A DNA stretch of 63,519 nt, the filler included, from Candidatus Desantisbacteria bacterium CG1_02_49_89 (GTDB taxonomy: Bacteria > Desantisbacteria > UBA1551), in NCBI GenBank assembly GCA_001871075.1. It is 3 parts of 3 records of this genome, joined end to end, with 100 filler letters (N's around TTAATTAATTAA, not from the genome) between each part and the next. Parts side by side here need not be neighbours in the genome. Positions count along the whole stretch, not along the records: positions 24,389 to 46,809 come from MNUP01000104.1; 2 more parts are not named here. One strand, given 5' to 3'. A program made the translations under genes and the position numbers. Of the stretch, positions 10,869 through 46,240 are shown piece by piece; the stretch's first letter is position 1, and the number at the start of each line of letters is the position of its first letter. The notes beneath the pieces were generated by a model. It saw only the letters and a list, made by a program, of their open reading frames with translations, did not search any database and was not told the origin of the DNA.

Positions 10869-10874
10869 GAATCG

Positions 10875-16440: not shown

Positions 16441-16447
16441 CCAGCCG

Positions 16448-25504: not shown

Positions 25505-25674
25505 CCCCCCGCGGCTTGCCGCGGGGATACAAATCATCCTTACCTGAAGGGGAGAAGAGGGGAAACGAGGCCGTTGCCCCTCATCCTTAAAGGATTGCCG
25601 TAAGCAATCCTGCGCAGCTTCGGCTCGATTTCAAGCCGAAGCGAGCATAAGACTCCCCGCGGCTTGCCGCGGGG
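25505..25674. mobile_element. Putative non-autonomous IS200/IS605-like element bounded by two CCCCGCGGCTTGCCGCGGGG hairpins
   Basis: Identical 20-nt hairpins at 25507-25526 and 25655-25674; no transposase ORF between them. Confidence 0.55.
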
Positions 25675-27744: not shown

Positions 27745-27837
27745 TCTCAAACCTCCCTCCTGAAAGATTTGCGGGTTTTCAAAAAGGTTTGAGTTACGTA
27801 ACTCAGGGCTTCAGCCCTGAGGGTTTTAAGGAAAAAT

Positions 27838-29391
27838 ATGAAAGATACTAAAAAAATGTTATTTTGGGTTCTGATGGCAATGCTGATCGCGTTAGGGACA
27901 GCAGGGCAATGCGCGATAACGCAGATGGCGGTGCAGACCATTGACGGGTTTGGTAAGCCGACTGCTTCGTTCTCAGAGGGCGGGCAGATAGGGTTGGGAA
28001 TATCCTTCTATAATAATAATGCAAATGTGGGGAGGGTTTATTTTGAATTTTATATTTATGAGCCCAGCGATACGCAAAAGCAGCACCCCGTTTTTACGCA
28101 CTTAGGTAATTCCGCTCCCGGGGGTGCGGGAAATAAATCTTCTTCCCTGAAGGTGCCGGTCAACTTATTTTATACAAAACCAGGATTTTATATTTTTCAA
28201 GGCGTAGCTAAGGCAGATACAGAGACAGTCACGGATTATAGAAGATTCAGGATACTGCCCGGGGTCATCGACCTTTTCTACCCGCCCAACGCGATGAAAG
28301 ACGTTGCTGATAACCCTCTTGTTTTCAGGTGGTATTCGTCCGGCGCGGACAAATACAGGATATTATTTGACGATAATTCGGGGTTCATGAACCCCATCTG
28401 GAGCACGGAAACAGACCAGGCAAGCGTTGAATACCCGGCTTTCCCTGCAGACCCCAGGCAGAAGCTTTCATCAGGAATAGTTTACTGGTGGAAGGTGGAA
28501 GGGCTGGACGCGTTCGGGAACAAGATACTTGACTCGCGCGCTCCTTTCAGTTTCACCCTGAAGGAAGCTATTGCTTCGGACGTGCTCGTGGAAAGGATCG
28601 GCATGCTGATAGACAGTGAGAAAGAGGAAATATTCATTTTCGCGGACGTGAAGAACGCGGGAGGCAAGGCCGAATACAACATACCGCTATCGGTCTATTT
28701 CAACGGAGAACAGGTAGGTTCGGCCAAAACCATAGACGTGATCCAGGTCAACGAAACAAAAAGGGTCACATTTGACTGCAGCAGTAAGGCAATGCAGCTT
28801 CTCGGTGCCAAGGAAGCCATAAATGTGGTTATTTCCGGAATGATAAATTTCGCCGACGACAGCCAGAAGAACAACCTGTTGACAGCGGCGCTGAAAATTG
28901 AACTTGAGAAAGCGAAAATAATAGGAAGGATCACTGACAGCGAAAGCCCGCCCATGGGGGTGGAAGGGGTTTCGGTGTTCTATTCAGGCCCTGTGAGCGG
29001 TGAAGTCAAGACAAACAATGGCGGGCATTACAAGATAGAAAACCTGCCGCTTGGGGAATACACGATAAGGACGGTAAAAGAAGGATTCGAAGTCCCGTCT
29101 TCTCTTTTGATAAGATTGGAAAAGAGAAAGGCCTGCACGGGCAATAACGTTGTCCTGGTAAAACTCGGAGAGGAAGCAGTTCTGCTCATCGCGGATCCTT
29201 CTTACAGCCCGGCTGATCCTTATTTAGGTGAAAGCATCACTGTTCAGGTCAGGATCAAGGATTCCAAAGGCATAGACAAAGTCGAAATACTCTACCAGCT
29301 CCCCGGAGAAGAAGGCGCCAGGACAATAGAAATGAACAGGGTGAGCGGGGACCAGAAGGAAGGAGTTTATGAAGCCACAATCAAACAATAA
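27838..29391 (+). CDS. Secreted multi-Ig-domain protein (CARDB and carboxypeptidase-regulatory-like domains)
   Basis: Signal peptide; VYWWKVEG; VKNAGG..E; TNNGGHYKIENLPLGEYTI. Confidence 0.7.
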   Translation: MKDTKKMLFWVLMAMLIALGTAGQCAITQMAVQTIDGFGKPTASFSEGGQIGLGISFYNNNANVGRVYFEFYIYEPSDTQKQHPVFTHLGNSAPGGAGNKSSSLKVPVNLFYTKPGFYIFQGVAKADTETVTDYRRFRILPGVIDLFYPPNAMKDVADNPLVFRWYSSGADKYRILFDDNSGFMNPIWSTETDQASVEYPAFPADPRQKLSSGIVYWWKVEGLDAFGNKILDSRAPFSFTLKEAIASDVLVERIGMLIDSEKEEIFIFADVKNAGGKAEYNIPLSVYFNGEQVGSAKTIDVIQVNETKRVTFDCSSKAMQLLGAKEAINVVISGMINFADDSQKNNLLTAALKIELEKAKIIGRITDSESPPMGVEGVSVFYSGPVSGEVKTNNGGHYKIENLPLGEYTIRTVKEGFEVPSSLLIRLEKRKACTGNNVVLVKLGEEAVLLIADPSYSPADPYLGESITVQVRIKDSKGIDKVEILYQLPGEEGARTIEMNRVSGDQKEGVYEATIKQ

Positions 29392-30193
29392 GTCAAATTG
29401 CAAATTGCAAATTGCAAATTGGTTAATCCTGATCAACCTATTGGCATTTTTGATAATGGTTGACACAGTTGCGCAAGCGGCGAGGATAGCCACGTTATCT
29501 TTGTTCTCGGGTAAAGTGGAGGTGCAGAGAAGCCAGAAAGACAGCTGGGAACCTGTAAAGATCAAAATGCCGCTTTACGTGAAGGACAAAGTGAGGACGG
29601 CAGCCAAATCTTCGGCGGAAATAGTGCTTGATGATAATAGTATATTGAGATTAAAGGAAAGGTCTGTTATGGAAATAAGGGACCTTAGCGAGGAAAGAGG
29701 GGCCAGAAATACTTCCTTCGGAGTACTTATCGGGAAGGTCTGGACCAGCGTGACACCCCAGCCCGCGGGTTCCAAGTTCCAGATACTCAGCACGTCCGCC
29801 ACTGTAGGCGTAAGGGGCACGGTAATGGCCGTCAGCGTTGACGTGGAGCAGAACATGAGGGTCCTGCTTTTTGAGGGCAGCGCTATGATCACCACCATAA
29901 GAGCCAGGATGGAAGAAGCGCAGTCCTTGATGCTTTCCGCTAACCAGGCTGTTAATATAACACCCGTTGTTTTATCACAGCCCGAACCTATCAAGCGGCA
30001 GGAGCGCGGGGAGTGGGATGATTTCATAAAGGAAATGGATAAAATAAAAGATGCGGCTGCGCCTGAGGCAGGTATAAAGCCGGGCGGCACTATAAAATAT
30101 TCCATAAAAGCAAAGAACGTTGAGGGCAAGGAAAAGGAATCCGCCAAATACTCAATTGAAACAAAGGGCGGGACAAGGCAGGAAACGCAATAA
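29369..30193 (+). CDS. FecR-domain protein
   Basis: GKVEV..W...DKVRT..AEI..S.LRL.E.S; ATVGVRGT. Confidence 0.8.
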   Translation: MKPQSNNKSNCKLQIANWLILINLLAFLIMVDTVAQAARIATLSLFSGKVEVQRSQKDSWEPVKIKMPLYVKDKVRTAAKSSAEIVLDDNSILRLKERSVMEIRDLSEERGARNTSFGVLIGKVWTSVTPQPAGSKFQILSTSATVGVRGTVMAVSVDVEQNMRVLLFEGSAMITTIRARMEEAQSLMLSANQAVNITPVVLSQPEPIKRQERGEWDDFIKEMDKIKDAAAPEAGIKPGGTIKYSIKAKNVEGKEKESAKYSIETKGGTRQETQ

Positions 30194-30254
30194 ATTAAAA
30201 CAGCTTATAAGCTTATAAGCTTGTAAGCTCACAAGTTATACAGTCAAAAAGCAA

Positions 30255-32147
30255 ATGAAACGGATAATGATTTTTATTATTTTGGGTGTTATGATGGCAC
30301 CGCCGGCGGCCATGGCCATTAAACAGGCAGAGCTTCAGCTGTCTGTTGCCTTCCCTGATCCCGTGAAAGCAGGGGATAAAATAACGTTCCAGGTGGTTAT
30401 TTTAAACACAGGCAGCGAGACATGGCTGGCAAACAGGTACTCGATCTACGCTGAAATATACGACGCGCGCGAGAAATACCTGGCCAAGACCGACCAGATA
30501 CTCGGTAATGTAGCGGTAGGCTCCGCGGGCATGGCTATAATATACCTGCCGTATGCAATTCCGCAGGATGAATATGAAGGCATGTATAAATACAGGATAA
30601 TAGTGAATTATGAAAATAAGAGGATACTGTACAGCGATTTCCTGAGTTACACCGTAAGTTCGATCGCGCGCAAGGAGGAAAAAGCGTTCCTCCTGCCCGT
30701 AAAACTGAACGGCAAGGGCATGGTTTCATACAGGAACAGCACTGAGGAAAACTGGGACAGCTACTTATGGAATTTCAACCTGGGCCTGATGGGCCAGGCT
30801 TTTGATAACCCCATGATGTTTAAGCTTGATTCCGGGATTGCGACAGACGGCTTCAGGCTGAACACAATACTGCTCAATTACCGCCTGCCCGCGCTAAGCG
30901 TTTCAGCCGGGGACGTTATGCCCGTATTTTCACAGCTTGCCTTTTATAATACAGGTGTCAGGGGTTTTATGGTTGAATACAAACCGGGGAAGATAGAGCT
31001 GGCAGGAGTACTTGCGTCTTCGGTATTTGCCCGGCAGGGCACTGATACAGCGTCCGGTTCGTACGCAAGGTATACGGGCGGAGCCAGGGCAGGATTGGAA
31101 GCGGTTAAAGACATGAAATTCGGGGTTTCATGCGTTTATACTGCCGATGCCCCGGGTTCTCTTACGGATCCCGCCGTTTCTATGGCGCCGGCGAAAAACC
31201 TGGTCCTTGCAGCAGATGTTTCCTGCCTTATGTTCGGGAACTTCCTGCTGGACGGGGAATACGCATACAGCAGTTATTCGGCAGACCTGGCAAGCGACAC
31301 GGCAGCGCTGGACGACGGCGCATACAGGATTTCTTTTTCAGCGATGCTGGGTGATATTACGGCTGGCATAACTTATAAGGAAGTAGGCACTTATTTTTCC
31401 TCGCTGAACAGCTCTTATTCAATAAGCGACAGGGCGGGGATAGAAGGGCTTCTTAATTACAGCCTCGATTTCCTGAAGATCTATTTCATGTACGGCAGAT
31501 TCAACGATAACCTTAGCAATGCCCCTGAAAAGGTTACTACCGCGATAGACAACCTGTCTTCATTTGTCACGGTCGCGTTCAGGGGATTTCCCGTATGCAC
31601 TCTGGGTTACACGTGGAACAGCCTGGTGGGTAATCCGGCGTCGCTCGTTAACAACGTTACCAGGAACGCGTCCATAGGGATAACGCATAAAATATGGGAA
31701 ACCAACATATCCGCCGGGTACCAGGTCGCTGAATTTTACGATATCACTGACCTGTCGTCCGATATCATAAGCTATTCAGGCAATCTCCGCTTCAACCGCA
31801 TGATAAACAATATTATTTCCCTGAACGCGGGAGTGAATTATTCCCGGCTCTACAGTATAGACCTTCCCAAGACCGATCAGACAGCGGGTGCAAGCGCGGG
31901 CGTGAATTACAGGCTGATACCAGAGAAATTCATCATTTCGGGATTTACAAGCGTTTCGCGCAGGATAGATGACGCCGGTACAACCGATAACCTTTATATT
32001 AACCTGAACGTGGACGGCACGTATAACATAAGCAGCGAGATGGCCCTTACGGTTGGGACAGGCTGGATTAATTCCGCGGACCAGATCAATTCCGCCAACA
32101 GCTGCCAGAGCTGGAGCCTGGGCACGCGCGCGAGCTACAGCTTCTAA
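30255..32147 (+). CDS. Outer-membrane beta-barrel protein with N-terminal Ig-like domain
   Basis: Signal peptide; NTGSETW; alternating amphipathic strands; C-terminal YSF. Confidence 0.7.
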   Translation: MKRIMIFIILGVMMAPPAAMAIKQAELQLSVAFPDPVKAGDKITFQVVILNTGSETWLANRYSIYAEIYDAREKYLAKTDQILGNVAVGSAGMAIIYLPYAIPQDEYEGMYKYRIIVNYENKRILYSDFLSYTVSSIARKEEKAFLLPVKLNGKGMVSYRNSTEENWDSYLWNFNLGLMGQAFDNPMMFKLDSGIATDGFRLNTILLNYRLPALSVSAGDVMPVFSQLAFYNTGVRGFMVEYKPGKIELAGVLASSVFARQGTDTASGSYARYTGGARAGLEAVKDMKFGVSCVYTADAPGSLTDPAVSMAPAKNLVLAADVSCLMFGNFLLDGEYAYSSYSADLASDTAALDDGAYRISFSAMLGDITAGITYKEVGTYFSSLNSSYSISDRAGIEGLLNYSLDFLKIYFMYGRFNDNLSNAPEKVTTAIDNLSSFVTVAFRGFPVCTLGYTWNSLVGNPASLVNNVTRNASIGITHKIWETNISAGYQVAEFYDITDLSSDIISYSGNLRFNRMINNIISLNAGVNYSRLYSIDLPKTDQTAGASAGVNYRLIPEKFIISGFTSVSRRIDDAGTTDNLYINLNVDGTYNISSEMALTVGTGWINSADQINSANSCQSWSLGTRASYSF

Positions 32148-32288
32148 ATGCAGTCATGGGTCATGTGTCATGAGTCATGAGCAAAATTGGAATAAAAATA
32201 GTTCGAAGGAGGGAATATGTTACAAATTCAAAATGCAAAATGCAAAATGCAAAATGCCCCAAAGGGATCCATTCGGACAAAGGTCAAA

Positions 32289-33203
32289 ATGATTATTTTT
32301 ATTCTTGCCTTACACCTTACACTTTACACGTTACACGGTATTTGCGGGGGGCCAGGCACGACAGGAGCCGCATTCCTGAAACTGGGCGCAGGTTCTCGCC
32401 CGGTTGCCATGGGTGAGGCGTTCGTGGCAGCGGCAGACGATATAAACGCGCTTTACTGGAACCCGGCTGGCCTGGCGCTTGCAGACGGAAAACAGGTGAG
32501 CTTCGTCCATACAGAATGGTTCCAGTCGATCAGGTACGAGTACCTTGCTTATTGCCAGCAGGCTTTAGGCGGCACGATAGGGGCGGGGATTACCTACCTG
32601 TATATTGACGGCATAGAGAGGAGGGATGCGGCAGGAGTTCTGCTAAGTTCCGTGTCTATTCCGGCAAACGACCTTGCTGTTGCTGCCGCGTATTCAAAGT
32701 CCCTTTCAGAGAAGCTTGCTGTCGGGGCGTCGGTAAAATTCATAAACCAGCAGCTTGATGACCAATCCGCGATGGGTGTCGCGGCTGATATCGGCGTGCT
32801 TTTCAGGCCTTCTCCCGAAGGCCTGGCAGTAGGTGTTGCTTTGCAGAACCTGGGTTACCAGGCGGCTTTCGAGACAGTGGCAAGCCCGCTTCCCACAAAC
32901 CTTAAGGCAGGAATATCCCAGAAATCCGCTGACGGCAACTTTACTTTCGCGGCCGATTTCAATTATTCCCTTCTTGACAGTATCTGGGCTGCCGGCGCAG
33001 GCATAGAATATTGGTTCCATCCGGTGTTTTCAGTCAGGGCAGGTTACAAATACAACAGCGCGATAAACAGCACTTTGGGGGCACTCTCAGGCCTTACCTG
33101 CGGTGTCGGATTTAAGGTAAGCATGATGAATATTGACTACGCGCTTGTTCCTTACGGTGATTTAGGTTATACGCACAGAATAACCGTGGGGGCTAAGTTT
33201 TAA
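32289..33203 (+). CDS. PorV/PorQ-family outer-membrane barrel
   Basis: AFLKLGAGSRPVAMGEAFVA.ADD..ALYWNPAGL; DYALVPYGDLGYTHR. Confidence 0.88.
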   Translation: MIIFILALHLTLYTLHGICGGPGTTGAAFLKLGAGSRPVAMGEAFVAAADDINALYWNPAGLALADGKQVSFVHTEWFQSIRYEYLAYCQQALGGTIGAGITYLYIDGIERRDAAGVLLSSVSIPANDLAVAAAYSKSLSEKLAVGASVKFINQQLDDQSAMGVAADIGVLFRPSPEGLAVGVALQNLGYQAAFETVASPLPTNLKAGISQKSADGNFTFAADFNYSLLDSIWAAGAGIEYWFHPVFSVRAGYKYNSAINSTLGALSGLTCGVGFKVSMMNIDYALVPYGDLGYTHRITVGAKF

Positions 33204-33294
33204 CGTGGGATGGAGAATGCCCGGTGGAATCCGGCCTGCTCACCATCTCGCAGGCGTCGCTAAACCGTCCCGATTTATTCATCGGGACAGCGAC

Positions 33295-33348
33295 CCTTAT
33301 GGCGATCTGGGTTATACCCACCGGATAACAGTAGGCGCTAAGTTCTAA
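33295..33348 (+). pseudogene. Displaced synonymous copy of the last 18 codons of the PorV-like gene
   Basis: Encodes PYGDLGYTHRITVGAKF* like 33150-33203; 11 of 54 nt differ, all silent. Confidence 0.9.
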
Positions 33349-33482
33349 TTAGTGTCCAGTATCCAGTAACAGCAGTTTACAGAGTTTATAAAGTTTACAC
33401 AGTTTACAAGTGAAAGATAAATTTCGTGTAAATCGTGTGCAATCGTGTGGTTAAATTTTGTGGTTTTGCGGTGGTTTTTAAC

Positions 33483-33514
33483 AAGGGTCCTCTGAAAAGG
33501 GGACCCTTTTTATT
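33483..33514 (+). terminator. Rho-independent terminator
   Basis: AAGGGTCCTCT-GAAA-AGGGGACCCTT followed by T-run. Confidence 0.75.
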
Positions 33515-33584
33515 TCCTTATATTTATACACTCTTTCAGCAGATTTTCAACGGAGGGGAAAGGGGTAAAAAAGGGGATTTTCTC

Positions 33585-33613
33585 TTGACTTTCAACGTAA
33601 AATATGGTATAAT
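33585..33613 (+). promoter_or_regulatory. sigma70 promoter for the ppiC-surA-pdxA-rsmA operon
   Basis: TTGACT-17nt-TATAAT with extended -10 TG. Confidence 0.75.
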
Positions 33614-33679
33614 ATATGAATTATATATATAATGAATAACGATGTATATATAATAGTATTTATGCTATAAGGAGGCAAA

Positions 33680-34555
33680 GTGAAAAGGTTTATTGCGGTA
33701 GGATTGGTGTGGGTTTTTATGCTGGGCGCGGTTGTTGTAAATGCCGCAGAAAAGAAAAGCACCAAGACAGGCACTGCTAAAAAGGCGGCGCCGGAAAAGT
33801 GGGTGGCTAAGATAAATGACAAGTACATAACCCTGGAGGAATTTGAATCAAGGTGGAACGCGATACCTTTCCAGTATAAATACCAGTACGGCCTTTTCGG
33901 CCCTGAAGGCAAAATAAGGGTTCTGGATACACTTGTTAAAAATGAGCTGCTTTACCAGGAAGGCATAAAGAAGGGTATATTGAATTCGGAGACAATAACC
34001 CAGAGGATCGAGGACCTGAAGAAACAGGTTGTTGCAGAGGAACTGCTGACAAGGCAGATGAAAGGCCTGGAAGCAAACGACTCCGAGGCTATGAGCTATT
34101 ATAACGCGAACAAGCAGGAGTTCGGAGAGCCTGAACAGGTAAGGGTAAGGCATATACTTGTAAAAGCCGAGACCGAAGCCAATGAAGTCCTTGCTAAGCT
34201 GAAAAAAGGAGAGGATTTAGCGAAACTCGCCCCGGAGTACTCGATTGACCCGGGCACCAAGGACAAAGGCGGCGAGCTGGGTTTCTTTTCCAGGGGCCAG
34301 ATGGTGCCTGAATTCGAGGAAGCGGCTTTCGGCTTAAAGGTCGGAGAGCGCAGCGGCGCCATAAAAACCGCATACGGCTACCACATTATAGAATCCGAGG
34401 AGAAAAAAGAAGGCTCCCAAAAAAGTTTTGATGAAGTAAAGGAAGAGGCAAAGAACGCCGCGTTCCAGGAGAAGCAGAGGAAGCTGTTTGAGGCTTACCT
34501 CGAGGAACTTGGCAAGAAGGCTGATGTTCAGCTTAAACAAGAGCTTCTTCAGTAA
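33680..34555 (+). CDS. PpiC/PrsA-type peptidyl-prolyl isomerase
   Basis: VRHILV, YSIDPGTKDKGGELG, MVPEFEEAAF, YGYHII. Confidence 0.92.
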   Translation: MKRFIAVGLVWVFMLGAVVVNAAEKKSTKTGTAKKAAPEKWVAKINDKYITLEEFESRWNAIPFQYKYQYGLFGPEGKIRVLDTLVKNELLYQEGIKKGILNSETITQRIEDLKKQVVAEELLTRQMKGLEANDSEAMSYYNANKQEFGEPEQVRVRHILVKAETEANEVLAKLKKGEDLAKLAPEYSIDPGTKDKGGELGFFSRGQMVPEFEEAAFGLKVGERSGAIKTAYGYHIIESEEKKEGSQKSFDEVKEEAKNAAFQEKQRKLFEAYLEELGKKADVQLKQELLQ

Positions 34556-34564
34556 GGAAAACAC

Positions 34565-35215
34565 ATGCGTAAACTTATTTCTCTGATAGTTTTTAGTATA
34601 GTTTGTTTCTTTTTTATCTTACACGTAACACGTGACACGTTACACGTTTGTTACGCCGCCCAGGTCGTTGAGCGCATTGTCGCAAAGGTTAACGATGAGG
34701 TTATATTCAAGTCCGAGCTTGATGAATATGTCAGGAACGCGCGCGCCCAGATGGGAGACAGGATAACCGGCAGTGAGAGCGAGCTTGCCAGGAAAGCACT
34801 CGACCAGATGATAGAGGAAAAAATATTGCTGCAGGAGGCGAAAAAGGAAGATATAGAAGCCACGGAAGACGATCTGAAAACAGCGCTTCAGAACATAAGG
34901 GATAAGTTTCCCTCTAAGGATGAATTTGACAGAGAGATGAAAAAGCAGGGCATGACCCTTGCGGATCTGCAGGAAACGCTGAAGAAGCAGGTCAAAATAT
35001 TGCGCCTTATAGAGAAAAACGTGAAAAGAAAGATACAGGTGACAAGCGGGGAGGGGAGGGAGTATTACAGGCAGCACAAGGATGAGATAGGGAAGCCGCT
35101 GGACAGCGCAAAAGAAGAGATCAACAACATTATTTTCGAGCAGAAGTTCAACGAAGCGTTCGGAAAATGGGTTGAAAAACTGAAAAAAAGAGCCATCATC
35201 GAGATCAAATTATAA
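34565..35215 (+). CDS. SurA N-terminal domain chaperone
   Basis: VERIVAKVNDEVI, LDQMIEEKILLQEA; precedes pdxA-rsmA. Confidence 0.85.
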   Translation: MRKLISLIVFSIVCFFFILHVTRDTLHVCYAAQVVERIVAKVNDEVIFKSELDEYVRNARAQMGDRITGSESELARKALDQMIEEKILLQEAKKEDIEATEDDLKTALQNIRDKFPSKDEFDREMKKQGMTLADLQETLKKQVKILRLIEKNVKRKIQVTSGEGREYYRQHKDEIGKPLDSAKEEINNIIFEQKFNEAFGKWVEKLKKRAIIEIKL

Positions 35216-35220
35216 TTACA

Positions 35221-35420
35221 GTGTCGCCCCTGCGGCGACCCGCCATGCCTCGTCGGCAGGTCGCCGAAGTGGTGACCGAAGTGGCGGGATTCTGAAAGAG
35301 ATTACCCCTGCAGCCCCGACATAAGAATCGGGACAAAACGCAGGGGTCCTTTAGGGACAGTGATTATTTAAATTTAGATAATCACCGTAATCAGCAGTTA
35401 AAAATCACCGTAATCGTTTT
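35221..35420. repeat. Nested hairpin modules inside inverted 9-mer (GATTACAGT/AATCACCGT) arms
   Basis: GTCGCC..GGCGAC plus CCCGCC..GGCGGG at 35223-35289; three-level nest at 35305-35358. Confidence 0.85.
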
Positions 35421-35441
35421 TACAAGGAAGGTGAGAAAGGT

Positions 35442-36458
35442 ATGAAGAAACAGGTGGTCGGTATCACAATGGGCGACAGCACGGGCATAGGGCCTGAAGT
35501 TATAGCCAAGTCCCTCCTGGAGAAATCCATATACAAAGTTTGTTCTCCCCTGGTTATAGGGGACCCCGAGGTGATGAAGGATGCTTTCCGCATAATCAAA
35601 AAGAGAGCGTCTATAAATACCGTTAAAAAACCCGAGCAGGCTGAATTCAATTACGGCTGCATAGATATTCTTTTTTTCCCTGAATGGAGGATGGAGACCA
35701 TCGTTAAAGGCCAGATAAATCTTTCTTCAGCCAGGGCATCAGTGGGATACATAAAAGAGGCGACAAACCTGGTTATGAAAAGGCAGATCGATGCTATCGT
35801 GACAGGCCCCATTAACAAAGAGGCGGTCAGGAAAGCCGGTTTTTATTTCGACGGGCACACGGAACTGCTTGCGCAGCTGACCAATACAAGGAAATACGCG
35901 ATGATGTTTGTGGGGGGAGGCTTATATGTGGTTCTCCTTACAACGCACCTTCCCATCAAAAGGATCAGCAATTTCGTGATCAGGGAAAAGGTGTTAAAGG
36001 TGATTAACCTGACCAGGGAAGTGATGGAAGCCTATTTCGGCATCAGGAATCCCAGGATAGGCGTCAGCGGCCTGAACCCGCATGCCGGCGAGTCCGGCGT
36101 ATTCGGGCAGGAGGAAATAAAGGAAATAATACCCGCAATAAAAGAAGCAAAGGAAAACGGGATAAACGTGACGGGCCCGATCTCGCCCGACATCATTTTC
36201 GTCAAGGCGAAGAAGAAGGATTTTGATGTTGTTGTTGCCATGTACCATGACCAGGCGCTGATCCCGATCAAGATGCTGGATTTCAGGAGGGCCGTGAACC
36301 TGACTATAGGGCTTCCTTTCATACGTACGTCTGTGGACCACGGCGTGGCATACGACATAGCCGGCAAGGGGACCGCGGATTACCATAGCATGGTCGAAGC
36401 GATAAAGCTTGCAGCCAGGCTTTCTTCCAGAAGCACCCTCACCAAAAAAACAGAATAA
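35442..36458 (+). CDS. pdxA: 4-hydroxythreonine-4-phosphate dehydrogenase
   Basis: TMGDSTGIGPE, GHTE, LNPHAGE, MYHDQ, RTSVDHG. Confidence 0.96.
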   Translation: MKKQVVGITMGDSTGIGPEVIAKSLLEKSIYKVCSPLVIGDPEVMKDAFRIIKKRASINTVKKPEQAEFNYGCIDILFFPEWRMETIVKGQINLSSARASVGYIKEATNLVMKRQIDAIVTGPINKEAVRKAGFYFDGHTELLAQLTNTRKYAMMFVGGGLYVVLLTTHLPIKRISNFVIREKVLKVINLTREVMEAYFGIRNPRIGVSGLNPHAGESGVFGQEEIKEIIPAIKEAKENGINVTGPISPDIIFVKAKKKDFDVVVAMYHDQALIPIKMLDFRRAVNLTIGLPFIRTSVDHGVAYDIAGKGTADYHSMVEAIKLAARLSSRSTLTKKTE

Positions 36459-36494
36459 AAACAGCCTGCTGGTCCTACGGCAGCAGCAACCAAT

Positions 36495-37376
36495 ATGGAA
36501 ACATTTGAGCAGGAGATAAGGCGGTTATTAGCGGAATACCATTTAAACGCAAGGAAACGCCTCGGCCAGAACTTCCTGGTTGACAGCGCGGTCGTTTCAA
36601 GGATAATACAGGCGGCAGACCTTTCCGGCGACGACACTGTTCTTGAGATCGGTTCCGGCCCCGGGATCCTGACCGGGCTCATAGCGGAAAAAGCCGGAAA
36701 AGTATTTGCCATTGAGCTTGACAGGGGATTTATAAAAATCCTTGAGGACAGGTTCGGCGGGAACAGCAAGGTCGGGATAGTAAGGGGGGATATCCTGAAG
36801 ATCGACCTGCTTCCCCTTTTTTCAGCGGAACGGGAAAAACCGGTTAAGATCATAGCCAACCTCCCTTATTACATAACAACACCTATTCTGATGCGCCTGC
36901 TCAGCCTGAAACTGCCGCCGTTAAGCACCATGTTTGTAATGGTGCAGAAAGAAGTGGGCATGCGCCTGGCAGCAAAGCCCTGCTCAAAGGATTACGGCAT
37001 ACTCACGCTCGTTACCAGGTATTATGCGGAACCCGAAATGCTGTTGCTGGTGCCCAGGAATTCGTTCATGCCGTCACCCGCGGTCGATTCAGCGCTGCTG
37101 AAGCTTACCGTGCTTGAAAGGCCGCCGGTAAACGTGAAAGACGAGAAACTATTCTTCTCCGTTATTAAAACCGCGTTCGGGCACAGGAGAAAAATGCTCG
37201 TTAATTCATTTGTCAAAAGCCCGCTGGGATCTTCGACAAAAAAGCAGGTTCTCGGTTTTTTTTCTGCCGCAGGGATAGATCCCCGCAGAAGGGCAGAGGA
37301 ACTGGGCATGGGAGATTTCGCCCGCCTTTCCGACGTTATACATGATAACAAACAGATGCTGGATCCTGGATCCTAG
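36495..37376 (+). CDS. rsmA: 16S rRNA dimethyladenosine transferase
   Basis: LGQNFL, EIGSGPG, ANLPYYIT, MVQKEV. Confidence 0.96.
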   Translation: METFEQEIRRLLAEYHLNARKRLGQNFLVDSAVVSRIIQAADLSGDDTVLEIGSGPGILTGLIAEKAGKVFAIELDRGFIKILEDRFGGNSKVGIVRGDILKIDLLPLFSAEREKPVKIIANLPYYITTPILMRLLSLKLPPLSTMFVMVQKEVGMRLAAKPCSKDYGILTLVTRYYAEPEMLLLVPRNSFMPSPAVDSALLKLTVLERPPVNVKDEKLFFSVIKTAFGHRRKMLVNSFVKSPLGSSTKKQVLGFFSAAGIDPRRRAEELGMGDFARLSDVIHDNKQMLDPGS

Positions 37377-37505
37377 TTAAAGGAGTTTTATTTAAATAAA
37401 TCCTTAATCCAGGATCTAACATCCCCGCCCTGAAACCTTAGGGCGAGGCTCGCCCAGGCATAGGCCATGGGCGGCAGCATCCAGGATCTGTTTAATGGAG
37501 ATTGC

Positions 37506-40013
37506 ATGAAAGCGATGGTTCTTGCCGGTGGTTTCGGAACAAGGCTCAGGCCGCTGACCTCCACCATACCAAAACCTTTGGTCCCTGTTCTGAACAAGCC
37601 CATAATGGCCCACACGGTGGAGCTTCTGCGCAGGTATGGTTTTAAAGACATTATTATGCTGCTTTTTTACCAGGGCGAGCTGATAAGGGATTATTTCAGG
37701 GACGGCAAAGACTGGGGCGTCAAGATCTCCTACATAGAAGAGGAGGAGGACCTGGGCACGGCGGGCTGCATAAAACTTGCCCGGGAATTACTGAATGAAC
37801 CGTTCCTTGTGATAAGCGGCGACATACTCACGGATTTCGATCTCTCCGAAATAATGGATTTTCATAAAAGCAAGAAGTCTTTTCTTACCATAACGCTGAC
37901 CAGGGTGAAGAATCCCCTCGAATACGGGATCGTCATTACAAAAGATGACGGCAGGATAGACAGGTTACTCGAAAAGCCCGGCTGGGGCGAAGTGTTCAGC
38001 GACACGATAAACACCGGGATATACGTCCTGCAGCCCGGGGTGCTGAACCACATACCCGACAAGAAAGAATTTGATTTCAGCAAGGACCTTTTTCCGCTCC
38101 TGATGGAAAATAAGCTGCCGCTTTACGGCTTCATATCCAGCGGTTACTGGAGGGATATTGGCAGTATTTCCGAATACAGCCTTGCGCATTACGAGGCGCT
38201 TAGAAAAGAGGTAAGGCTGGACCTTCCCGGGGAAAAAATGCGCGAGGGTAACGTCTGGATAGGAAGCGAAACTACCGTGGAGGCGGGAGCCATATTCAAG
38301 GGGACCGTTGTAGCCGGTGACAACTGCGTGATAAAAAGCGGGGTTGAAATCAGGGATTCGGTTGTGGGCGATAACTGCGTGATAGAGGAAGGCGCGGTCG
38401 TCAACAGGTGCATAATCTGGAACGGCACGATACTGGGGAAGAACTCGCATTTTAAAGAGAATATTATCGGAAAAAACTGCAAGATAGGCAGCAAGGTTTT
38501 TATGGAGGAGGGCGCGGTCGTTGCCGATGACTGCAGGATAGGGGACCAGAGCCTTATAAGGCAGTCTGTCAAGATATGGCCGCACAAGATCGTTGAGAAA
38601 GAGGCGATAGTCTCGACCAGCCTTGTCTGGGGCGAGAAATGGTCCAAGTCGCTTTTCGGCATCTACGGCGTGACAGGCCTGTCCAACATAGAGATAACGC
38701 CTGAATTCTCGGCAAAGCTCGGAGCCTCATACGGCGCTTCCCTTAAGAAAGGCTCGGCGGTCATTACCAGCCGGGACAGCCACCGTTCATCCAGGATGAT
38801 AAAGCGCTCTTTTATTTCCGGCCTCCTTTCCACGGGCGTGAACGTGGATGATATCAGGGATATGCCGGTGCCGGTCGTAAGGTACATAATGCGCACTTCC
38901 GGCGAATACGCGGGGGGGATACACGTGCGCATGTCTCCCTATGACCCCAAGCTGATGGATGTCAAGTTCCTGGAGCCTTCCGGCATGGATATTTCCTCGG
39001 GAAAGGAAAAAGCGATCGAAAGGCTTTTTTTCCGCGAGGATTTCCGAAGGGCAAGCAGCGAGGAAACCGGAAGCCTTGAGGTCCCTTCACGCGTCATAGA
39101 GTATTACAGGGAAGGTTTCCTTTCGAAGCTGGACACAGGCCTGATAAAAAAGAGGAAATTCAAGATAGTGGTGGATTACGCTTTTTCCAGCGCGGGAAGC
39201 GTTTTTTCTTCGATGCTCGGTGAGCTCGGATGCGAGGTTATCGCGCTGAACGCCTACGTGGATGACAGGAAGACGGCGAAAACCGCCGAGGAATTCGAAA
39301 ATTCCCTGAACCAGCTTTCTAATATCGTGGTCACGCTCAAGGCGGATATAGGTTTCATGTTCGACGCGGGCGCCGAGAAGGTCTTCCTGGTGGATGAGGG
39401 GGGGAAGGTCCTGTCAGGCGATCTTTCGCTCGCGCTGGTCAGCAGGCTCGTGATGGAGACCTATACGAAACCCGCGATAGCCGTGCCTGTCACAGCGTCG
39501 CATATCATTGAAGAAATGGGCAGGGAATACGGCGCTACCGTGGTGCGCACGAAAACCAATTCACACTCCATGATGGCGGCAGGGAGCACGAAGGAAATAA
39601 GTTTTATCGGCGAGATAAAGGGCGGGTATATATTTCCCGAATTCCAGCCGGCTTTCGACACCATGTTTTCGCTGGGCAAGATACTTGAAATGCTTGCCAG
39701 GACCGGGGGAATGCCCGGCAGGTTTGTTTCCGAGATCCCCAGGATCTCGATGGTCAGGGAGCATGTGTTCTGCCCCTGGGAGCTCAAGGGCAGGATAATG
39801 CGCCTGCTCATAGAGGAAACAAAGAACAGGAAAAGGGACCTTATAGAAGGCATCAAGATATACGAGGGTGAAAGCCTTGGTATACCATGGGTCATAATCC
39901 TGCCTGATGAGGACAGAGCCCTTTTTCACGTTAACGCGGAAGCCAAGACGACCGAGGAAGCAAAAGAGCTGACGCAGAAATATATAGCCAAGATAAAAGA
40001 ATGGCAGAGGTAG
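37506..40013 (+). CDS. Mannose-1-phosphate guanylyltransferase / phosphomannomutase fusion
   Basis: LAGGFGTRLRPLT, LbH hexapeptide region, PGM/PMM-like C-terminal half. Confidence 0.9.
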   Translation: MKAMVLAGGFGTRLRPLTSTIPKPLVPVLNKPIMAHTVELLRRYGFKDIIMLLFYQGELIRDYFRDGKDWGVKISYIEEEEDLGTAGCIKLARELLNEPFLVISGDILTDFDLSEIMDFHKSKKSFLTITLTRVKNPLEYGIVITKDDGRIDRLLEKPGWGEVFSDTINTGIYVLQPGVLNHIPDKKEFDFSKDLFPLLMENKLPLYGFISSGYWRDIGSISEYSLAHYEALRKEVRLDLPGEKMREGNVWIGSETTVEAGAIFKGTVVAGDNCVIKSGVEIRDSVVGDNCVIEEGAVVNRCIIWNGTILGKNSHFKENIIGKNCKIGSKVFMEEGAVVADDCRIGDQSLIRQSVKIWPHKIVEKEAIVSTSLVWGEKWSKSLFGIYGVTGLSNIEITPEFSAKLGASYGASLKKGSAVITSRDSHRSSRMIKRSFISGLLSTGVNVDDIRDMPVPVVRYIMRTSGEYAGGIHVRMSPYDPKLMDVKFLEPSGMDISSGKEKAIERLFFREDFRRASSEETGSLEVPSRVIEYYREGFLSKLDTGLIKKRKFKIVVDYAFSSAGSVFSSMLGELGCEVIALNAYVDDRKTAKTAEEFENSLNQLSNIVVTLKADIGFMFDAGAEKVFLVDEGGKVLSGDLSLALVSRLVMETYTKPAIAVPVTASHIIEEMGREYGATVVRTKTNSHSMMAAGSTKEISFIGEIKGGYIFPEFQPAFDTMFSLGKILEMLARTGGMPGRFVSEIPRISMVREHVFCPWELKGRIMRLLIEETKNRKRDLIEGIKIYEGESLGIPWVIILPDEDRALFHVNAEAKTTEEAKELTQKYIAKIKEWQR

Positions 40014-40018
40014 GCACG

Positions 40019-40930
40019 ATGGAGGATCTGAGGTACGCAAGCGCTGTTGCAAGGATAAGGGTCCTGGAAAAATCCCTTCTGTCCGGGGAAAAGATCCGGA
40101 GGATGGAGGACGCGCCCGATGTTCCGGGGGCCTGGCAGGAAACAAAGGGCTGGGGCCTGAAGGAGACAGGGGATATAAACGCCGGCGATGCCGGGGAAAT
40201 AAACGCGTTCCTTTTAAGCGAGCTCAGGTATACCAGGGACCTTGTTCTTTCCTTGGCGCTGGAAAAGAACATTGCGGAGCTGTTTTTTATCAAATATGAC
40301 CTGCAGAACATCAGGGCGGCGCTTAAAGGCATGGGTGACGAAGGTATTTCTGATATCGGGACGGTTCCCGCGCGGAAAATAAAATCAGCCATGGAAAGCA
40401 GCGATTTTACCGGCCTGCGCCCGATGCTGAGAAAAATAATGAGCGCGAGGATAGAAGAGCTGCGAGCGGAGCCCGAAAATGCGGGCGCGGTGCTCGATGC
40501 CGATGCATACAGGCTGAGCATGGAAGAGATAAACGGAACCGAGTTCCCGTCCAGGGAATTTGTCAGGGAGGTTTTCCGCACCGAGATCGATATCCACAAT
40601 CTCAGGAGCCTTGCCAGGAGCAGGAGGCTTTCGAGGAAAGCCGATTTTTTTTCCAGGATAGCCCTGGATGGCGGCACGCTGGAAAAGAAATTTCTGGTTG
40701 ACAGGTATGAGTCGGAAACGGGCGGCCTGGATAGCATGGTGAGTTCCAGGCTGCAGGAATCCAGCGCGAGGCTGAAGAAATTATATGAGTCCAGCATGTA
40801 CACGGCTTTCGGTTTTGAACCGGTAATAACATATTTAAAAATGAGGGAAAGGGACGCCAGGCTTATCAGGGGAATAATGCTGTCAAAAATTTACGGAGAA
40901 CAGCTGGATACGGCAGACTATATGGTTTAG
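40019..40930 (+). CDS. V/A-type ATPase subunit C-like
   Basis: YASAVARIRVLEKSLL, KYDLQNIR, EIDIHNL, FGFEPVITYL. Confidence 0.75.
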   Translation: MEDLRYASAVARIRVLEKSLLSGEKIRRMEDAPDVPGAWQETKGWGLKETGDINAGDAGEINAFLLSELRYTRDLVLSLALEKNIAELFFIKYDLQNIRAALKGMGDEGISDIGTVPARKIKSAMESSDFTGLRPMLRKIMSARIEELRAEPENAGAVLDADAYRLSMEEINGTEFPSREFVREVFRTEIDIHNLRSLARSRRLSRKADFFSRIALDGGTLEKKFLVDRYESETGGLDSMVSSRLQESSARLKKLYESSMYTAFGFEPVITYLKMRERDARLIRGIMLSKIYGEQLDTADYMV

Positions 40931-41193
40931 GCCATAGCAGGCCAAGCCAATTATGAGTTATGAATTATGCCCCAAAGGGATCCCTTCGGGAAATTATGAA
41001 TCAACAACAAGGAATTTTATTTAAACAAGGAGTGTTCCCGCCCAAAAGATTGGCGGGTCCGCCAATTAGTGTGGCGGAAACCTGTGGTTAAAAGAGAAGT
41101 TTACATGGTTTGCATAGTTTAAAGAGTTTCCAGGTCAAGATAATTAGTGGAAATTAGTGGAAATTCGTGGTTAGGTGGTTAGGGGGATTTACG

Positions 41194-41505
41194 ATGGAGG
41201 AGATAGCAGCGGTTGGGCCTGATGCCGGAGTTCTCGGTTTTGCCGCGTGCGGGATAAAGGTCTTCCCGGTAAAAAACGCGGAAGAGGCCGCAGGCATAAT
41301 AAAAAAAATTATTGGAAAGTATGCCATTATACTTGTGAGCGAAACATTTATCGATGAGTTGAAAAAAAACATAAGGGATGTCGAAACAGGCGGATCGTCC
41401 ATGATACTGCCCTTGCCAATGCTCGGTAGGTCTTCGGGAAAGGCAAAGGAAAGGATCGAAAGGTTCATCAGGGGGGCGATAGGCATCCCGGGGCAATCAG
41501 TCTAA
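41194..41505 (+). CDS. V/A-type ATPase subunit F-like
   Basis: IAAVG...VLGF...GI; YAIILVSE; IRGAIG. Confidence 0.8.
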   Translation: MEEIAAVGPDAGVLGFAACGIKVFPVKNAEEAAGIIKKIIGKYAIILVSETFIDELKKNIRDVETGGSSMILPLPMLGRSSGKAKERIERFIRGAIGIPGQSV

Positions 41506-41529
41506 AATGAATATTTTCTTGCTTTTTAC

Positions 41530-41557
41530 TTGCATTTTAATAAAAAGATGGTATAAT
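41530..41557 (+). promoter_or_regulatory. sigma70 promoter for the small ORF
   Basis: TTGCAT-16nt-TATAAT with extended -10 TG. Confidence 0.6.
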
Positions 41558-41609
41558 ACAATGAGTGGAAAGGAAACTTTCCAAGTCTTAAAATACGGGG
41601 GTAATGGAA

Positions 41610-41732
41610 ATGGGCAAGGTTATTTTAAAGAATGCCGTAAAAAGAGAAAAGGGATGCATGTATTATGTGGATGGCAAGGGAAATCTTTGCGAAGCAAAGA
41701 TGGCAAAAGGCGGGAAGAGGAAAAAGAAATAA
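41610..41732 (+). CDS. Small basic protein (40 aa), absent from the ORF track
   Basis: MGKVILKNAVKREKGCMYYVDGKGNLCEAKMAKGGKRKKK; GGGGG SD-like site, own promoter and terminator. Confidence 0.7.
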   Translation: MGKVILKNAVKREKGCMYYVDGKGNLCEAKMAKGGKRKKK

Positions 41733-41761
41733 CCGTTAGTTCTGTTTTATTAACTTTCCTG

Positions 41762-41801
41762 AATAGGGTTGGCGCGTCCTGTGCCAACCCTATTTTTGTT
41801 T
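41762..41801 (+). terminator. Rho-independent terminator
   Basis: AATAGGGTTGGC...GCCAACCCTATT followed by T-run. Confidence 0.8.
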
Positions 41802-41876
41802 AAATATGATTACACGGATTTTAAAAATGATTCCTCAGATTAAAAATATCCTGGAATCTGTGTAATCGGTGGAAAC

Positions 41877-42359
41877 ATGGGATGGCTTGATTTTGCGGTT
41901 TTGGGCGTTTTGATAGCAAGTATTGTCCTGGGGCTTAAAAGAGGCCTTGTAAGGGAAATAATTTCGCTTGCCGGCATAATAACGGGGCTTGTTATCGCGA
42001 GCCGTTTTTATAAAAACTTTACGTTCTTTGGAAATACCTTTAAAAACCCGGTCCTGGGAAGGACAATTTCATTCCTGCTGATCTTTGCCGGGATCGCGGC
42101 TGTATTCGGCATAATAGGCATGCTGGTGCATAAATTCGTAAAAGCAGGCGGCCTGGGTATGCTTGACCACCTGGGAGGGTTTATATTCGGATTTTTAAAG
42201 GGTGTATCGGTTACGGGGATCATCCTGTTCCTGCTCTCAAAATTTGTGTTTTTCCAGAAATTAATGGATAAATCACCTGTAGCATCAGCCATCCTGAGGG
42301 TTTTTAGAAATATACTTTACCTTATATGGAGCAAACCGGAGACAACGGAATACATATAG
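41877..42359 (+). CDS. cvpA: CvpA family membrane protein
   Basis: WLD...GLKRGLVREIISL; LDHLGGFIFG. Confidence 0.88.
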   Translation: MGWLDFAVLGVLIASIVLGLKRGLVREIISLAGIITGLVIASRFYKNFTFFGNTFKNPVLGRTISFLLIFAGIAAVFGIIGMLVHKFVKAGGLGMLDHLGGFIFGFLKGVSVTGIILFLLSKFVFFQKLMDKSPVASAILRVFRNILYLIWSKPETTEYI

Positions 42360-42404
42360 CAGGATGACATTTCAAATTTCAAAATGCAAATTGCAAAATT
42401 TAAA

Positions 42405-43763
42405 ATGAAAAGAAATATACTTTTGGTGCTCCTTTTTGTTATGGTATGCGGTGCTTCCGGCGCGGCAGACGTGAAATATCTCAGGCTGGACAACGGAATG
42501 ACCGTGATACTGAAGGAAGACCACAAGATACCGGCTCTGGCGATCCAGCTGTGGGTAAGGTGCGGTTCGAAAGACGAAGAAGAAACGATGGGCGGCATTT
42601 CGCATTTCCTGGAGCATATGGCATTCAAGGGGACCGAGAAGTACGCCGTAAATGAAATTCACAGAGAGGTTGAGAAGAGGGGCGGGGACATAAACGCCGG
42701 CACTTCCAGGGATTTTACCTATTATTACATTATCCTGCCCGGCAGCTTGTTATCCTATATGGGCGAAACTCAGGCGCAGGGCCGGGAGAAGGCCGGGAAT
42801 TCAAGCCTGCGCACCGGGCTCGATATCATATACCAGGTTTCTATGAAGTCTGTTTTCGCGGATGAAGAGATCGAGAAGGAAAAGCTTGTGGTCCTCGAGG
42901 AGATAAAACGCAAGTACGATGACCCGCAGGGTTACCTGTGGGACCTTTTCAATCAGGCGGTTTACGCCGGTTCTCCGTACGCGCACCCGGTACTCGGGAC
43001 CGAAGTATCCGTTGGGAATTTCACTTCCGGGAACGTTGCGGATTATTTCAGGGAGCATTATACCCCGCGGAATTTCATTCTTGTGCTCGCAGGTGATTTT
43101 AAGACCGGTGAAGCCGCGGGTATTATCAGGGAGCTTTTCGGAAAAGAGAAGGGCGGCCCGGTCTTTCCGGCGGCCCATGTTTCTCTTCCCCGGCAGCGGG
43201 AAAACCCGGAAGAAGTAAAGGCCGAAAGGAACATGATGCAGGCTTACCTGATAACAGGGATGCTCGGTCCCGCCGGCGCTGACCAGGATGCTTACGCCAT
43301 GGACGTTCTGGTCTACATACTCGGAAAAGGCAGGGCTTCAAGGCTTCACAGGATACTGAGGGAACGCAGGGAACTTGTCTGGGATATCGACTGTTCTTTT
43401 ATAACGCAGGCGGGAATGGGGCCGTTCTACGTGTATGTGGAATGCGATCCGCAGAAGATCCCCGAAGCGCGCGAAGAAATAAAGAACCAGCTGGACAGGT
43501 TTTCAGTGGAACAGGTGACTGAAGAGGAGATACGCAGGTCAAAAGCCCTTATAGAAAGCGAATACCTGCTGGGAACCGAATCAAACCAGGGTTTTGCTTT
43601 TAACCTGGGATACTACGAGCTCATAGGTTCCTACAGGTGGGGGCTTGACTATCTGAAGAATATCATGAAGGTGACAAGCGGAGACATATTGCGGGTAGCC
43701 CGGAAATACATTGCAACGGAACGGTCCTTATGCGTAATGGTTGTTCCTTCTTCTGCGCAGTAG
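42405..43763 (+). CDS. M16B zinc peptidase, catalytic subunit
   Basis: LDNGM, HFLEHMAFKGT (HxxEH), SRLHRILRE. Confidence 0.92.
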   Translation: MKRNILLVLLFVMVCGASGAADVKYLRLDNGMTVILKEDHKIPALAIQLWVRCGSKDEEETMGGISHFLEHMAFKGTEKYAVNEIHREVEKRGGDINAGTSRDFTYYYIILPGSLLSYMGETQAQGREKAGNSSLRTGLDIIYQVSMKSVFADEEIEKEKLVVLEEIKRKYDDPQGYLWDLFNQAVYAGSPYAHPVLGTEVSVGNFTSGNVADYFREHYTPRNFILVLAGDFKTGEAAGIIRELFGKEKGGPVFPAAHVSLPRQRENPEEVKAERNMMQAYLITGMLGPAGADQDAYAMDVLVYILGKGRASRLHRILRERRELVWDIDCSFITQAGMGPFYVYVECDPQKIPEAREEIKNQLDRFSVEQVTEEEIRRSKALIESEYLLGTESNQGFAFNLGYYELIGSYRWGLDYLKNIMKVTSGDILRVARKYIATERSLCVMVVPSSAQ

Positions 43764-45025: not shown

Positions 45026-45175
45026 AAAATGAACCACAGTTCAATAGCTCAATTGCTTCCCTGCAGGCCCTTATGGCCTAACGCAGGGATTTCACTCCCA
45101 GTTCAACAATAGTTCAATAGTTCAAGGAATCCTCTGTGTCCTCTGTGGTTAGAAGTATGTTGGATAGGGATCTCA

Positions 45176-45913: not shown

Positions 45914-46030
45914 AAGCGTGTCAGAGTGTCAACGTATCAACGTGTCAAAGTAAATACATTTTCAGTAATTCTTTGTTGTTACGCTGATACGCTGATACAT
46001 TGATACGTTGATACGCAGTAAGGAAAAAGA

Positions 46031-46240
46031 ATGCGGGCCGTGGTCCAGAGGGTCAAGTGGGCGAAGGTATCCAGGATATCAGGCGAAAAAAGTGAACCGC
46101 TGGGTGAGATAGGCAAAGGCATGCTTATTTTCCTCGGGATAGGGAAGGGCGATAGCGCGTCCGATGCCCAGTACCTTGCGGACAAACTTTTAAACCTCAA
46201 CGACGGCCCCGTTACCTTTGTAATAGACTCTAAGCAATGA
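46031..46240 (+). pseudogene. dtd: D-aminoacyl-tRNA deacylase with large in-frame internal deletion
   Basis: MRAVVQRV...LADKLLNL fused directly to NDGPVT; SQFTL core absent. Confidence 0.85.

Follow-up and report, generated by a model that had tools for sequence, protein, structure and literature searches.

Families of small GC-rich palindromes with a nested anatomy and filled and empty sites in Candidatus Desantisbacteria

In Candidatus Desantisbacteria bacterium CG1_02_49_89, a small set of GC-rich hairpin modules, which we call A to E, recurs between genes, within short tandem arrays, and within other hairpins. We examined these modules in a window of 63,519 bases, which is the whole stretch of DNA that was analysed; it consists of three contigs with runs of N at 24289-24388 and 46810-46909 and has one short masked stretch. 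We found that the modules are repeat families with a nested anatomy, that they are precisely present or absent in related strains, and that the same array can be differently filled from one strain to another. Our preferred reading, which we hold to be probable, is that several families of non-coding GC-rich palindromes, 21-54 nt long, have been copied to new genomic places in the Desantisbacteria population and have landed there with precision. Our census of modules and enzymes covers the 63.5-kb window, in which 59 open reading frames (ORFs) were scanned against Pfam; three further small ORFs were scanned with NCBIfam only, and hisF was compared with solved structures only.

A reading made from the sequence alone (the sequence-only reading) had placed modules A to E at numerous sites, and we found the expected module at every one of them, with all three contigs represented; the positions given for E were likewise right at all sites, although the copy at 13225 is a loose match only. 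Modules A, B, and E are hairpins of 21-22 nt, C measures 30-40 nt, and D measures 47-54 nt. They are non-coding, occur in either orientation, and are also found inside a coding sequence: three module sites lie inside ORFs as called here, of which 50729-50865 is truly within hisF. Perfect GC-rich hairpins amount to 3.9 per kb of non-coding DNA (non-coding as called here) versus 0.89 per kb of coding DNA. Modules A to D were also more numerous than in shuffled DNA, and none of 300 dinucleotide shuffles reached the real count: A had nine regular-expression matches at seven places (shuffle mean, 0.31), B had five matches (0.76), C had four (0.01), and D had four (0). This comparison is post hoc, since the patterns were written from the same data, and for E (44 matches versus 22.4 in shuffles) the pattern is too loose to inform.

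The presence and absence of modules can be followed most directly in hisF. The hisF ORF occupies 50290-51231, and alignment with solved HisF structures covers residues 1-134 and 199-313 of its product and leaves a 62-residue insert between them. The insert is encoded as follows.

50692-50883, plus strand: composite insert, in frame, at residues 135-198 of the hisF product; it consists of heptamer arrays, a C-type variant and its tail, and module D

Both modules are in frame, the C-type variant with its conserved tail at 50728-50778 and module D at 50812-50865, where D sits in a CGTTACA-type array. A search of a large protein collection yielded a graded series of HisF homologues, which were compared as proteins.

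P0027: 313 aa, 21 contigs; the window's own HisF, with arrays, C-type piece, and D
P0028: 295 aa, five contigs from three sources, 99% identity in aligned columns; lacks only the 18 residues encoded by D
P0029: 278 aa, 93% identity; also lacks the 17-residue C-type piece and keeps the array-encoded residues
P0030: 299 aa, 85% identity; different inserts in the same stretch
P0031: 259 aa, 84% identity; a short remnant
P0032, P0038, and P0039: 251-252 aa, 75-84% identity; no insert

The peptide absent from P0028 corresponds to exactly the 54 nt of D, and the D site has no duplicated flank at the protein level. Across the series, hisF alleles are thus found with no insert (including P0038 and P0039, both of which NCBI names Desantisbacteria), with arrays only, with arrays and the C-type piece, and with arrays, the C-type piece, and the 54-nt D. 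One strain, represented by P0030, fills the same array with other module-like inserts; judging from back-translation, the peptides in question could be encoded by a C-type module and a second E hairpin. NCBI gives the name Candidatus Desantisbacteria to a protein that shares a 90% cluster with the window's HisF. In all, HisF homologues of 251-313 aa fill this one loop in five or more different ways. The sequence-only reading had proposed that hairpins of 20-55 nt are written stepwise into existing repeats, and these natural alleles support that proposal.

The nested anatomy can be seen in the spacer at 35216-35441. As single-stranded DNA, this spacer folds into nested hairpins (z = -4.6; 0 of 200 shuffles fold as well), and it holds the following elements.

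35223-35239: hairpin F (GTCGCC-loop-GGCGAC), the first part of a composite that splits a 13-mer arm
35239-35288: module A (CCCGCCA...TGGCGGG), whose loop holds two small hairpins
35306-35345, plus strand: module C (CCCTGCAG...AACGCAGGG), whose loop holds a B-like hairpin (35315-35332)
35346-35358: a second E hairpin (GTCC-TTTA-GGGAC), which together with C makes a 53-nt composite that splits GATTAC/AGTGATT
35380-35415, minus strand: the 13-mer arm AATCACCGTAATC, which is the host repeat of this spacer, in two copies and in reverse complement

On the left of the spacer the host 13-mer reads GATTACAGTGATT, and on the right it is found twice in reverse complement. In many spacers, two 13-mers (GATTACNNNGATT) at a spacing of 22-23 nt serve as inverted arms, and the same pairs recur in at least six; arm sites lie at 8171, 35380/35403, 49450/49473, 56495/56517, 59016/59038, and 60926/60949/60969, as well as in the spacer of a related locus, L012. 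Deleting 35306-35358 in silico rejoins GATTAC/AGTGATT exactly, giving a junction 12-mer that is present at three other sites, and deleting 35224-35288 (F together with A and its two loop hairpins) restores 12 of the 13 bases of the next 13-mer. Two adjacent copies of the word have thus each received a composite, at positions that differ. An exact split at this place had been described before, and it holds, although the word that is split is a 13-mer and not a 9-mer. At 35306-35358 the B-like hairpin lies in the loop of C, and C is followed by the second E hairpin. The stem of the B-like hairpin is imperfect in the window (CCCGAC), and at position 35320 the contigs of all four Logan runs (X15, X19, X22, and X24) have T in place of C, a change that makes the stem the canonical CCCGAT and restores a base pair.

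We also compared the window with related loci at the DNA level. In L007, which is syntenic and about 70% identical, spacers measure 0-57 nt and have neither arrays nor hairpins, whereas spacers in the window reach 236 nt; with L007 and the hisF series, the empty alleles on which the sequence-only reading had staked its case are present among relatives. In L012, which is about 88% identical in the flanks, the 13-mer arms are kept and none of the GC hairpins of 35223-35358 is found. The L012 arms have changed together (GTG/CAC to GCG/CGC) with their complementarity kept, and the middle of this spacer is not alignable. In another assembly, L006, which is 99.9% identical over 20.9 kb, the differences amount to a handful of substitutions, indels of one base each at two places, and a single insertion of 48 nt (L006 15605-15653). 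This insertion lies inside a 10-mer array at about 41160 of the window, has a repeated AATTCGT on its flanks, and contains a hairpin, CGTCG-TTTAT-CGACG; the insert has no second copy in the window. When Logan contigs from the same four runs were set against 26801-46800, no hairpin-sized skip was seen among the matches listed, in contigs that break at repeats, and the joints listed are long-range joins between repeat copies.

Outside hisF and the spacer at 35216-35441, the modules stand at the following places.

4535-4567: hairpin F with a short A hairpin, the same pair as at 35223
10546-10566: module B (GTCCCGAT-loop-ATCGGGAC), held in a loop that AATAGA/TCTATT closes
10762-10782, plus strand: module A, 21 nt, just 3' of tRNA-Cys
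11145-11165, minus strand: module A, inverted, replacing part of a tRNA-Cys pseudo-copy (about 11132-11229)
13336-13372: a C-like outer stem, TCCCTGC/GCAGGGA, with module A (13343-13363) in its loop
16333-16379: module D, as two hairpins with the common basal stem CGCCC/GGGCG and the linker AGACCT, flanked by TTA/CA
32257-32277: module E, as two mini-hairpins, where two units of a CAAAATG array meet
33267-33288: module B in the loop of GTCGCT/AGCGAC
37423-37474: a module D variant in an array of CATCCAGGATCT words, overlapping the first ATG of the next ORF
40970-40991: module E between AATTATG units
41037-41078: two A-type hairpins in tandem
45059-45107, plus strand: module C with its own inner hairpin and the conserved tail ATTTCRCT..TCAAC
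49221-49266, plus strand: module A, whose loop encloses an A-type hairpin (49231-49251)
51316-51362, plus strand: module C and a second E hairpin, in an array of TTTGAC words
56228-56278, plus strand: module C and its tail
56287-56339: module D between two GAAAGCAC words
60054-60075: module E inside the 5' arm GAAGC/AATC of another hairpin, of which the 3' arm, GATTGCTTC, is whole

At 60054 the original GAAGC/AATC stem is proven, because the 3' arm is both intact and complementary. The E copies at 40970 and 32257 stand at unit boundaries of heptamer arrays, and the flanks TTA/CA of D recur at 16333 and 50812. Local evidence of this kind bears out, for some copies, the earlier claim that modules split existing motifs cleanly, but the claim does not extend to a general excess in the strict junction test described below. 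Nesting itself was more frequent than expected by chance, with a perfect outer stem, 6 bp or longer, around 8 of 36 small hairpins within 8 nt, versus 126 of 2160 random intergenic intervals (5.8%; binomial P ~9e-4), for a hairpin list that was made by hand and in which copies of one family are not independent. This anatomy and enrichment are all that shows the insertion of hairpins into hairpins (B into C, A into A).

The spacers in which the modules stand are themselves rich in repeats. Tandem words of 7-10 nt occur in nearly every one (94 rows from Tandem Repeats Finder), and short-period arrays number 8.2 per 10 kb in the window, compared with 0-3.2 in seven control loci from other bacteria. 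This abundance would suit a local, non-mobile origin of the modules, in which slippage and template switching (fold-back synthesis) in AT-rich arrays make palindromes in place, as mutational debris. Such an origin could also accommodate the way in which C copies differ completely in their inner stems and D copies in their loops (what five aligned C copies have in common is a stem of 6-7 bp only), as well as the fact that the sequence adjoining the D site in hisF differs between alleles. However, we consider it very unlikely, as near-identical modules of 21-54 nt stand on three contigs in contexts that are unrelated, D is either present or missing as a single unit of exactly 54 nt, and D with the same four arms and central loop is found in another phylum. 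Copying to new places is the reading that we prefer.

The occurrence in another phylum came from a scan of 301 genomes of the Omnitrophota phylum, one of which (G210) has the full D architecture, while a reversed-pattern control gave none in the same set of genomes. The two D copies of G210 share the four arms and the central loop and have different self-pairing loops. G210 also has six homologues of the GIY-YIG nuclease described below. Finding the D architecture in an Omnitrophota-phylum genome shows that D is a real family and one that crosses phyla. The second D-type copy of G210 (L109, on G210:C21, at about 1440-1620) is flanked by a 16-nt direct repeat, AkTTACGAATGCGCTG. The simple A pattern, at 0-3 per genome of 2-2.7 Mb in G001-G005, equalled its reversed control, and A is therefore not common to these genomes. 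The A 21-mer had no match in viral contigs. Viral contigs gave 82 matches to the D core, which we rejected as candidates: 0 of the 82 had the D architecture, and their number is about the chance level.

Several features of the modules would also be expected of functional RNAs or transcription signals, whether terminators, stabilisers of mRNA, or small structured RNAs whose fold is conserved. The stems are conserved and the loops variable, the spacer described above folds much better than its shuffles, and 5 of 5 C copies are co-oriented with the neighbouring genes. Nevertheless, a T run follows on the gene strand after only 1 of 31 copies, so that the modules are not intrinsic terminators; A is found in either orientation, the reading frame of hisF contains copies, and close relatives are without them. 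Rfam 15 gave no match besides two tRNAs, whether at the gathering score or with E allowed up to 1. Given these results, we regard a function in RNA as highly improbable, and we return to the reading of the modules as copied repeats.

The only nuclease gene in the window lies among the modules.

10875-11117, minus strand: gene for an 80-aa single-domain GIY-YIG nuclease (PF01541 only), bracketed by two inverted A copies

This gene lies between tRNA-Cys and a tRNA-Cys pseudo-copy (window 10793-11229). In the pseudo-copy, module A takes the place of the stretch after the anticodon loop, and the D-loop has a decayed half-A; the second A, in opposite orientation, stands just beyond the intact tRNA-Cys. 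The best solved relatives of the protein are UPF0213 proteins (E ~3e-7). The sequence-only reading had asked which small enzymes are flanked by modules; we found this for the GIY-YIG gene, with its inverted A copies, and found no Y1 or RAYT transposase among the 59 ORFs scanned against Pfam.

Homologues of the GIY-YIG gene lie at most ~135 nt from a tRNA gene in 8 of 12 further loci in Omnitrophota-phylum genomes (6 of 6 in G002-G005 and 2 of the 6 in G210; loci L095-L100, L112, and L115), or in 9 of 13 loci when the window is included. Genes of ~80 aa of this kind adjoin tRNA genes and have partial or pseudo copies of the same tRNA on their other side. They look like tRNA-targeting homing elements. 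In L099, L112, and L115, the pseudo-tRNA beside the GIY-YIG gene has GC hairpins at loop positions, and one hairpin of this set, CCCCGCC-GAA-GGCGGGG, stands where the anticodon arm would be, which fits loop-directed insertion. A hairpin-gene-hairpin layout, NTS-ssnA-NTS, is reported for Ssn nucleases and their motifs (PMC11893778). The 80-aa nuclease is a candidate for the inserting enzyme; its role is not proven, because pseudo-tRNAs may simply be tolerant DNA with loops.

We can picture the process as follows. The modules behave like repetitive extragenic palindromes (REPs) and cyanobacterial small dispersed repeats (SDRs) and would be non-autonomous. They would land precisely, and no target duplication would be visible; their targets would be short arrays of AT-rich tandem words and, probably, the loops of pre-existing hairpins. 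Successive insertions would give rise to nested composites, and composites that happen to be in frame could survive within genes. Insertion may take place on single-stranded DNA, on which slipped arrays and hairpin loops would be exposed, and may depend on an enzyme that acts in trans and recognises the conserved base of the stem. The GIY-YIG nuclease beside tRNA-Cys, which lies between inverted A copies in an Ssn-type layout, would be one candidate for this enzyme, and a Y1 transposase (of the RAYT or IS200/IS605 type) elsewhere in the genome would be equally possible.

The same locus invites a different interpretation, in which the hairpins are cognate motifs of Ssn-like, single-stranded DNA-specific GIY-YIG nucleases, kept by the host for the control of recombination or DNA uptake, and in which nesting is a by-product of cutting and repair instead of the work of selfish DNA. 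The match between the hairpin-GIY-YIG-hairpin architecture and NTS-ssnA-NTS, as set out in PMC11893778, is in keeping with host-kept sites, as are the size and single domain of the 80-aa protein and the CGTC or TGTC word at 11 of 31 module ends. We nonetheless think this interpretation unlikely. The published search pattern for Ssn-related motifs (SRM) has no match among the modules, the nearest solved proteins are of the UPF0213 group, only family A is tied to a GIY-YIG gene and at a single locus, and the translated copy in hisF and the presence or absence of modules in near-identical strains look neutral.

Our own reading, that the modules are copied palindromes with precise landing, has to be weighed against several results. 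The insertion events are not seen at the DNA level, as the hisF alleles were compared as proteins, and for this reason precise deletion is formally possible; P0027 and P0028 also differ in six residues after the D site. In a strict test, which asked for the exact 12-mer junction elsewhere in non-coding DNA and left boundaries free by 2 nt, 2 of 23 composites scored versus 159 of 2300 random intergenic intervals (6.9%), so that there was no enrichment; a permissive version (19 of 23 versus 660 of 920) was uninformative. We found no common target word in the flanks of the modules and no empty allele for any case of a hairpin within a hairpin, and the C family could be one element with a freely varying tip instead of a product of nested insertion. 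With regard to the enzyme, no transposase of any kind was found among the ORFs scanned against Pfam, the link between modules and GIY-YIG genes consists of one locus here and anecdotal loci elsewhere, and this link may be indirect if pseudo-tRNAs are tolerant DNA. Neither strand yielded a match to the SRM pattern.

A bolder version of our reading can be stated as well: that hairpins of at most 55 nt form a self-targeting ecosystem, driven by miniature tRNA-associated GIY-YIG single-strand nucleases, and that these hairpins recognise loops and slipped repeats on single-stranded DNA, stack at multiple levels, cross phyla, and routinely lengthen essential proteins. We regard this version as doubtful, if conceivable. 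If it were true, mobile DNA would have a mode not yet described, and this mode would be widespread among bacteria that have not been cultivated. The spread of repeats that are too small for any coding content has been a question since the description of the cyanobacterial SDRs. The hisF loop provides a rare natural series at one site (empty, arrays, one module added, two modules added, and alternative modules), and junctions, the order of events, and the choice of target are therefore directly testable on existing metagenomes. The GIY-YIG locus adds a concrete small candidate enzyme with a defined hairpin substrate, and together the allelic series and the hairpin-flanked gene make the mechanism testable. 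That micro-elements can lengthen an essential enzyme such as HisF by 62 residues also bears on the annotation of uncultivated bacterial genomes and on how variation in protein length is read.

The genes around the modules belong to ordinary housekeeping operons across the window. Contig 1 has genes for arginine synthesis and a Tad pilus, contig 2 has surA-pdxA-ksgA and a V-ATPase, and contig 3 has hisH/hisF, guaA, pyrG, purF, and pst. Heptamer arrays lie within reading frames at 34619-34648 (N-terminus of a SurA-like protein), 48857-48888 (linker of a GH38 mannosidase), 29394-29421 (a gene junction), and 32308-32336 (a likely signal peptide). An element resembling a miniature inverted-repeat transposable element stands at 9120-9238, 16391-16447, and 40949-41030; its arms are tandem AATTATG words, and its copies have the common core AATCAAMAACAAGGAATTT. 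Downstream of a partial type I methylase gene, an identical pair of hairpins, CCCCGCGG-CTTG-CCGCGGGG, lies at 25507-25526 and 25655-25674, 148 nt apart, and encloses further hairpins. Just upstream of phoU (61767-61815), the palindrome GGGACTGTCCC occurs twice around a small hairpin and may be an operator rather than a mobile module.

We compared the modules with repeat systems described elsewhere. Full matches to described families, which the sequence-only reading had named as grounds for refutation, were not found among those that we looked for, with no SRM-pattern match, no GTAG tag at any of 31 module ends, and no Rfam family. That reading knew of no description of the nested grammar, and the literature searched gave us no account of such repeats for Desantisbacteria or for candidate phyla. 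The nesting of small palindromes has precedent in print (Di Nocera 2013; Elhai 2008, 2015), so it is not a new category; for example, PMC4390886 describes SDR5 as inserted precisely between bases 3 and 4 of HIP1.

REPs and the REPIN-RAYT system share with the modules that they are short extragenic palindromes in many copies, found as singles, dimers, and clusters (PMC3116915 and PMC3733652). In PMC3733652, some REPs are inserted within other palindromes and some have loop extensions that are themselves self-complementary, as is the case here. The modules differ in having neither a GTAG nor a GTGG tag (0 of 31 module ends), in having shorter stems and more varied loops, and in that no Y1 transposase is found among the window ORFs.

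The REPs of the CGTC class (dRS3/NTS and some Rickettsia palindromic elements) and the Ssn system resemble our locus in the small single-domain GIY-YIG gene with hairpin repeats on both sides (PMC3733652 and PMC11893778). The Ssn-type protein is one of about 90 aa, and the one here has 80 aa. Unlike the CGTC REPs of PMC3733652, the modules have stems without A/T in the first positions, and the GIY-YIG gene here is tied to a tRNA and a pseudo-tRNA, whereas PMC11893778 makes no mention of tRNA. The sequence at 13396-13408, CGTCATTCCCGCG, is identical to bases 1-13 of the NTS consensus that PMC11893778 gives for Neisseria; the matching 3' arm is absent, and the identity may be due to chance. Intragenic copies are known for the CGTC class too, and the CGTC or TGTC words noted above at module ends are a further likeness. 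We know of no mobilising enzyme for CGTC-type REPs.

Elements of the IS200/IS605 type are recognised as hairpins on single-stranded DNA and insert without target duplication. The absence of a target duplication is shared by D in hisF, at the protein level. The modules differ in that they are 10-20 times smaller, show no fixed target word, and are accompanied by no transposase gene in the window. IS200/IS605 'peel and paste' elements are named in the Discussion of PMC11893778.

Overall, the modules are REP/SDR-like micro-palindromes, and they resemble the little-understood micro-repeats of cyanobacteria. Elhai et al. reportedly described, in 2008, SDRs nested in heptamer STRR arrays in Nostoc-type cyanobacteria. 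Compared by description, both kinds of repeat are non-coding, can form hairpins, and measure about 21-27 nt. Like SDRs, the modules are also precisely placed in heptamer tandem arrays and in one another. The differences are that the host here is Candidatus Desantisbacteria and not a cyanobacterium, that there are more families, with two-hairpin modules of up to 54 nt and nesting to about four levels, and that one composite is translated inside hisF.

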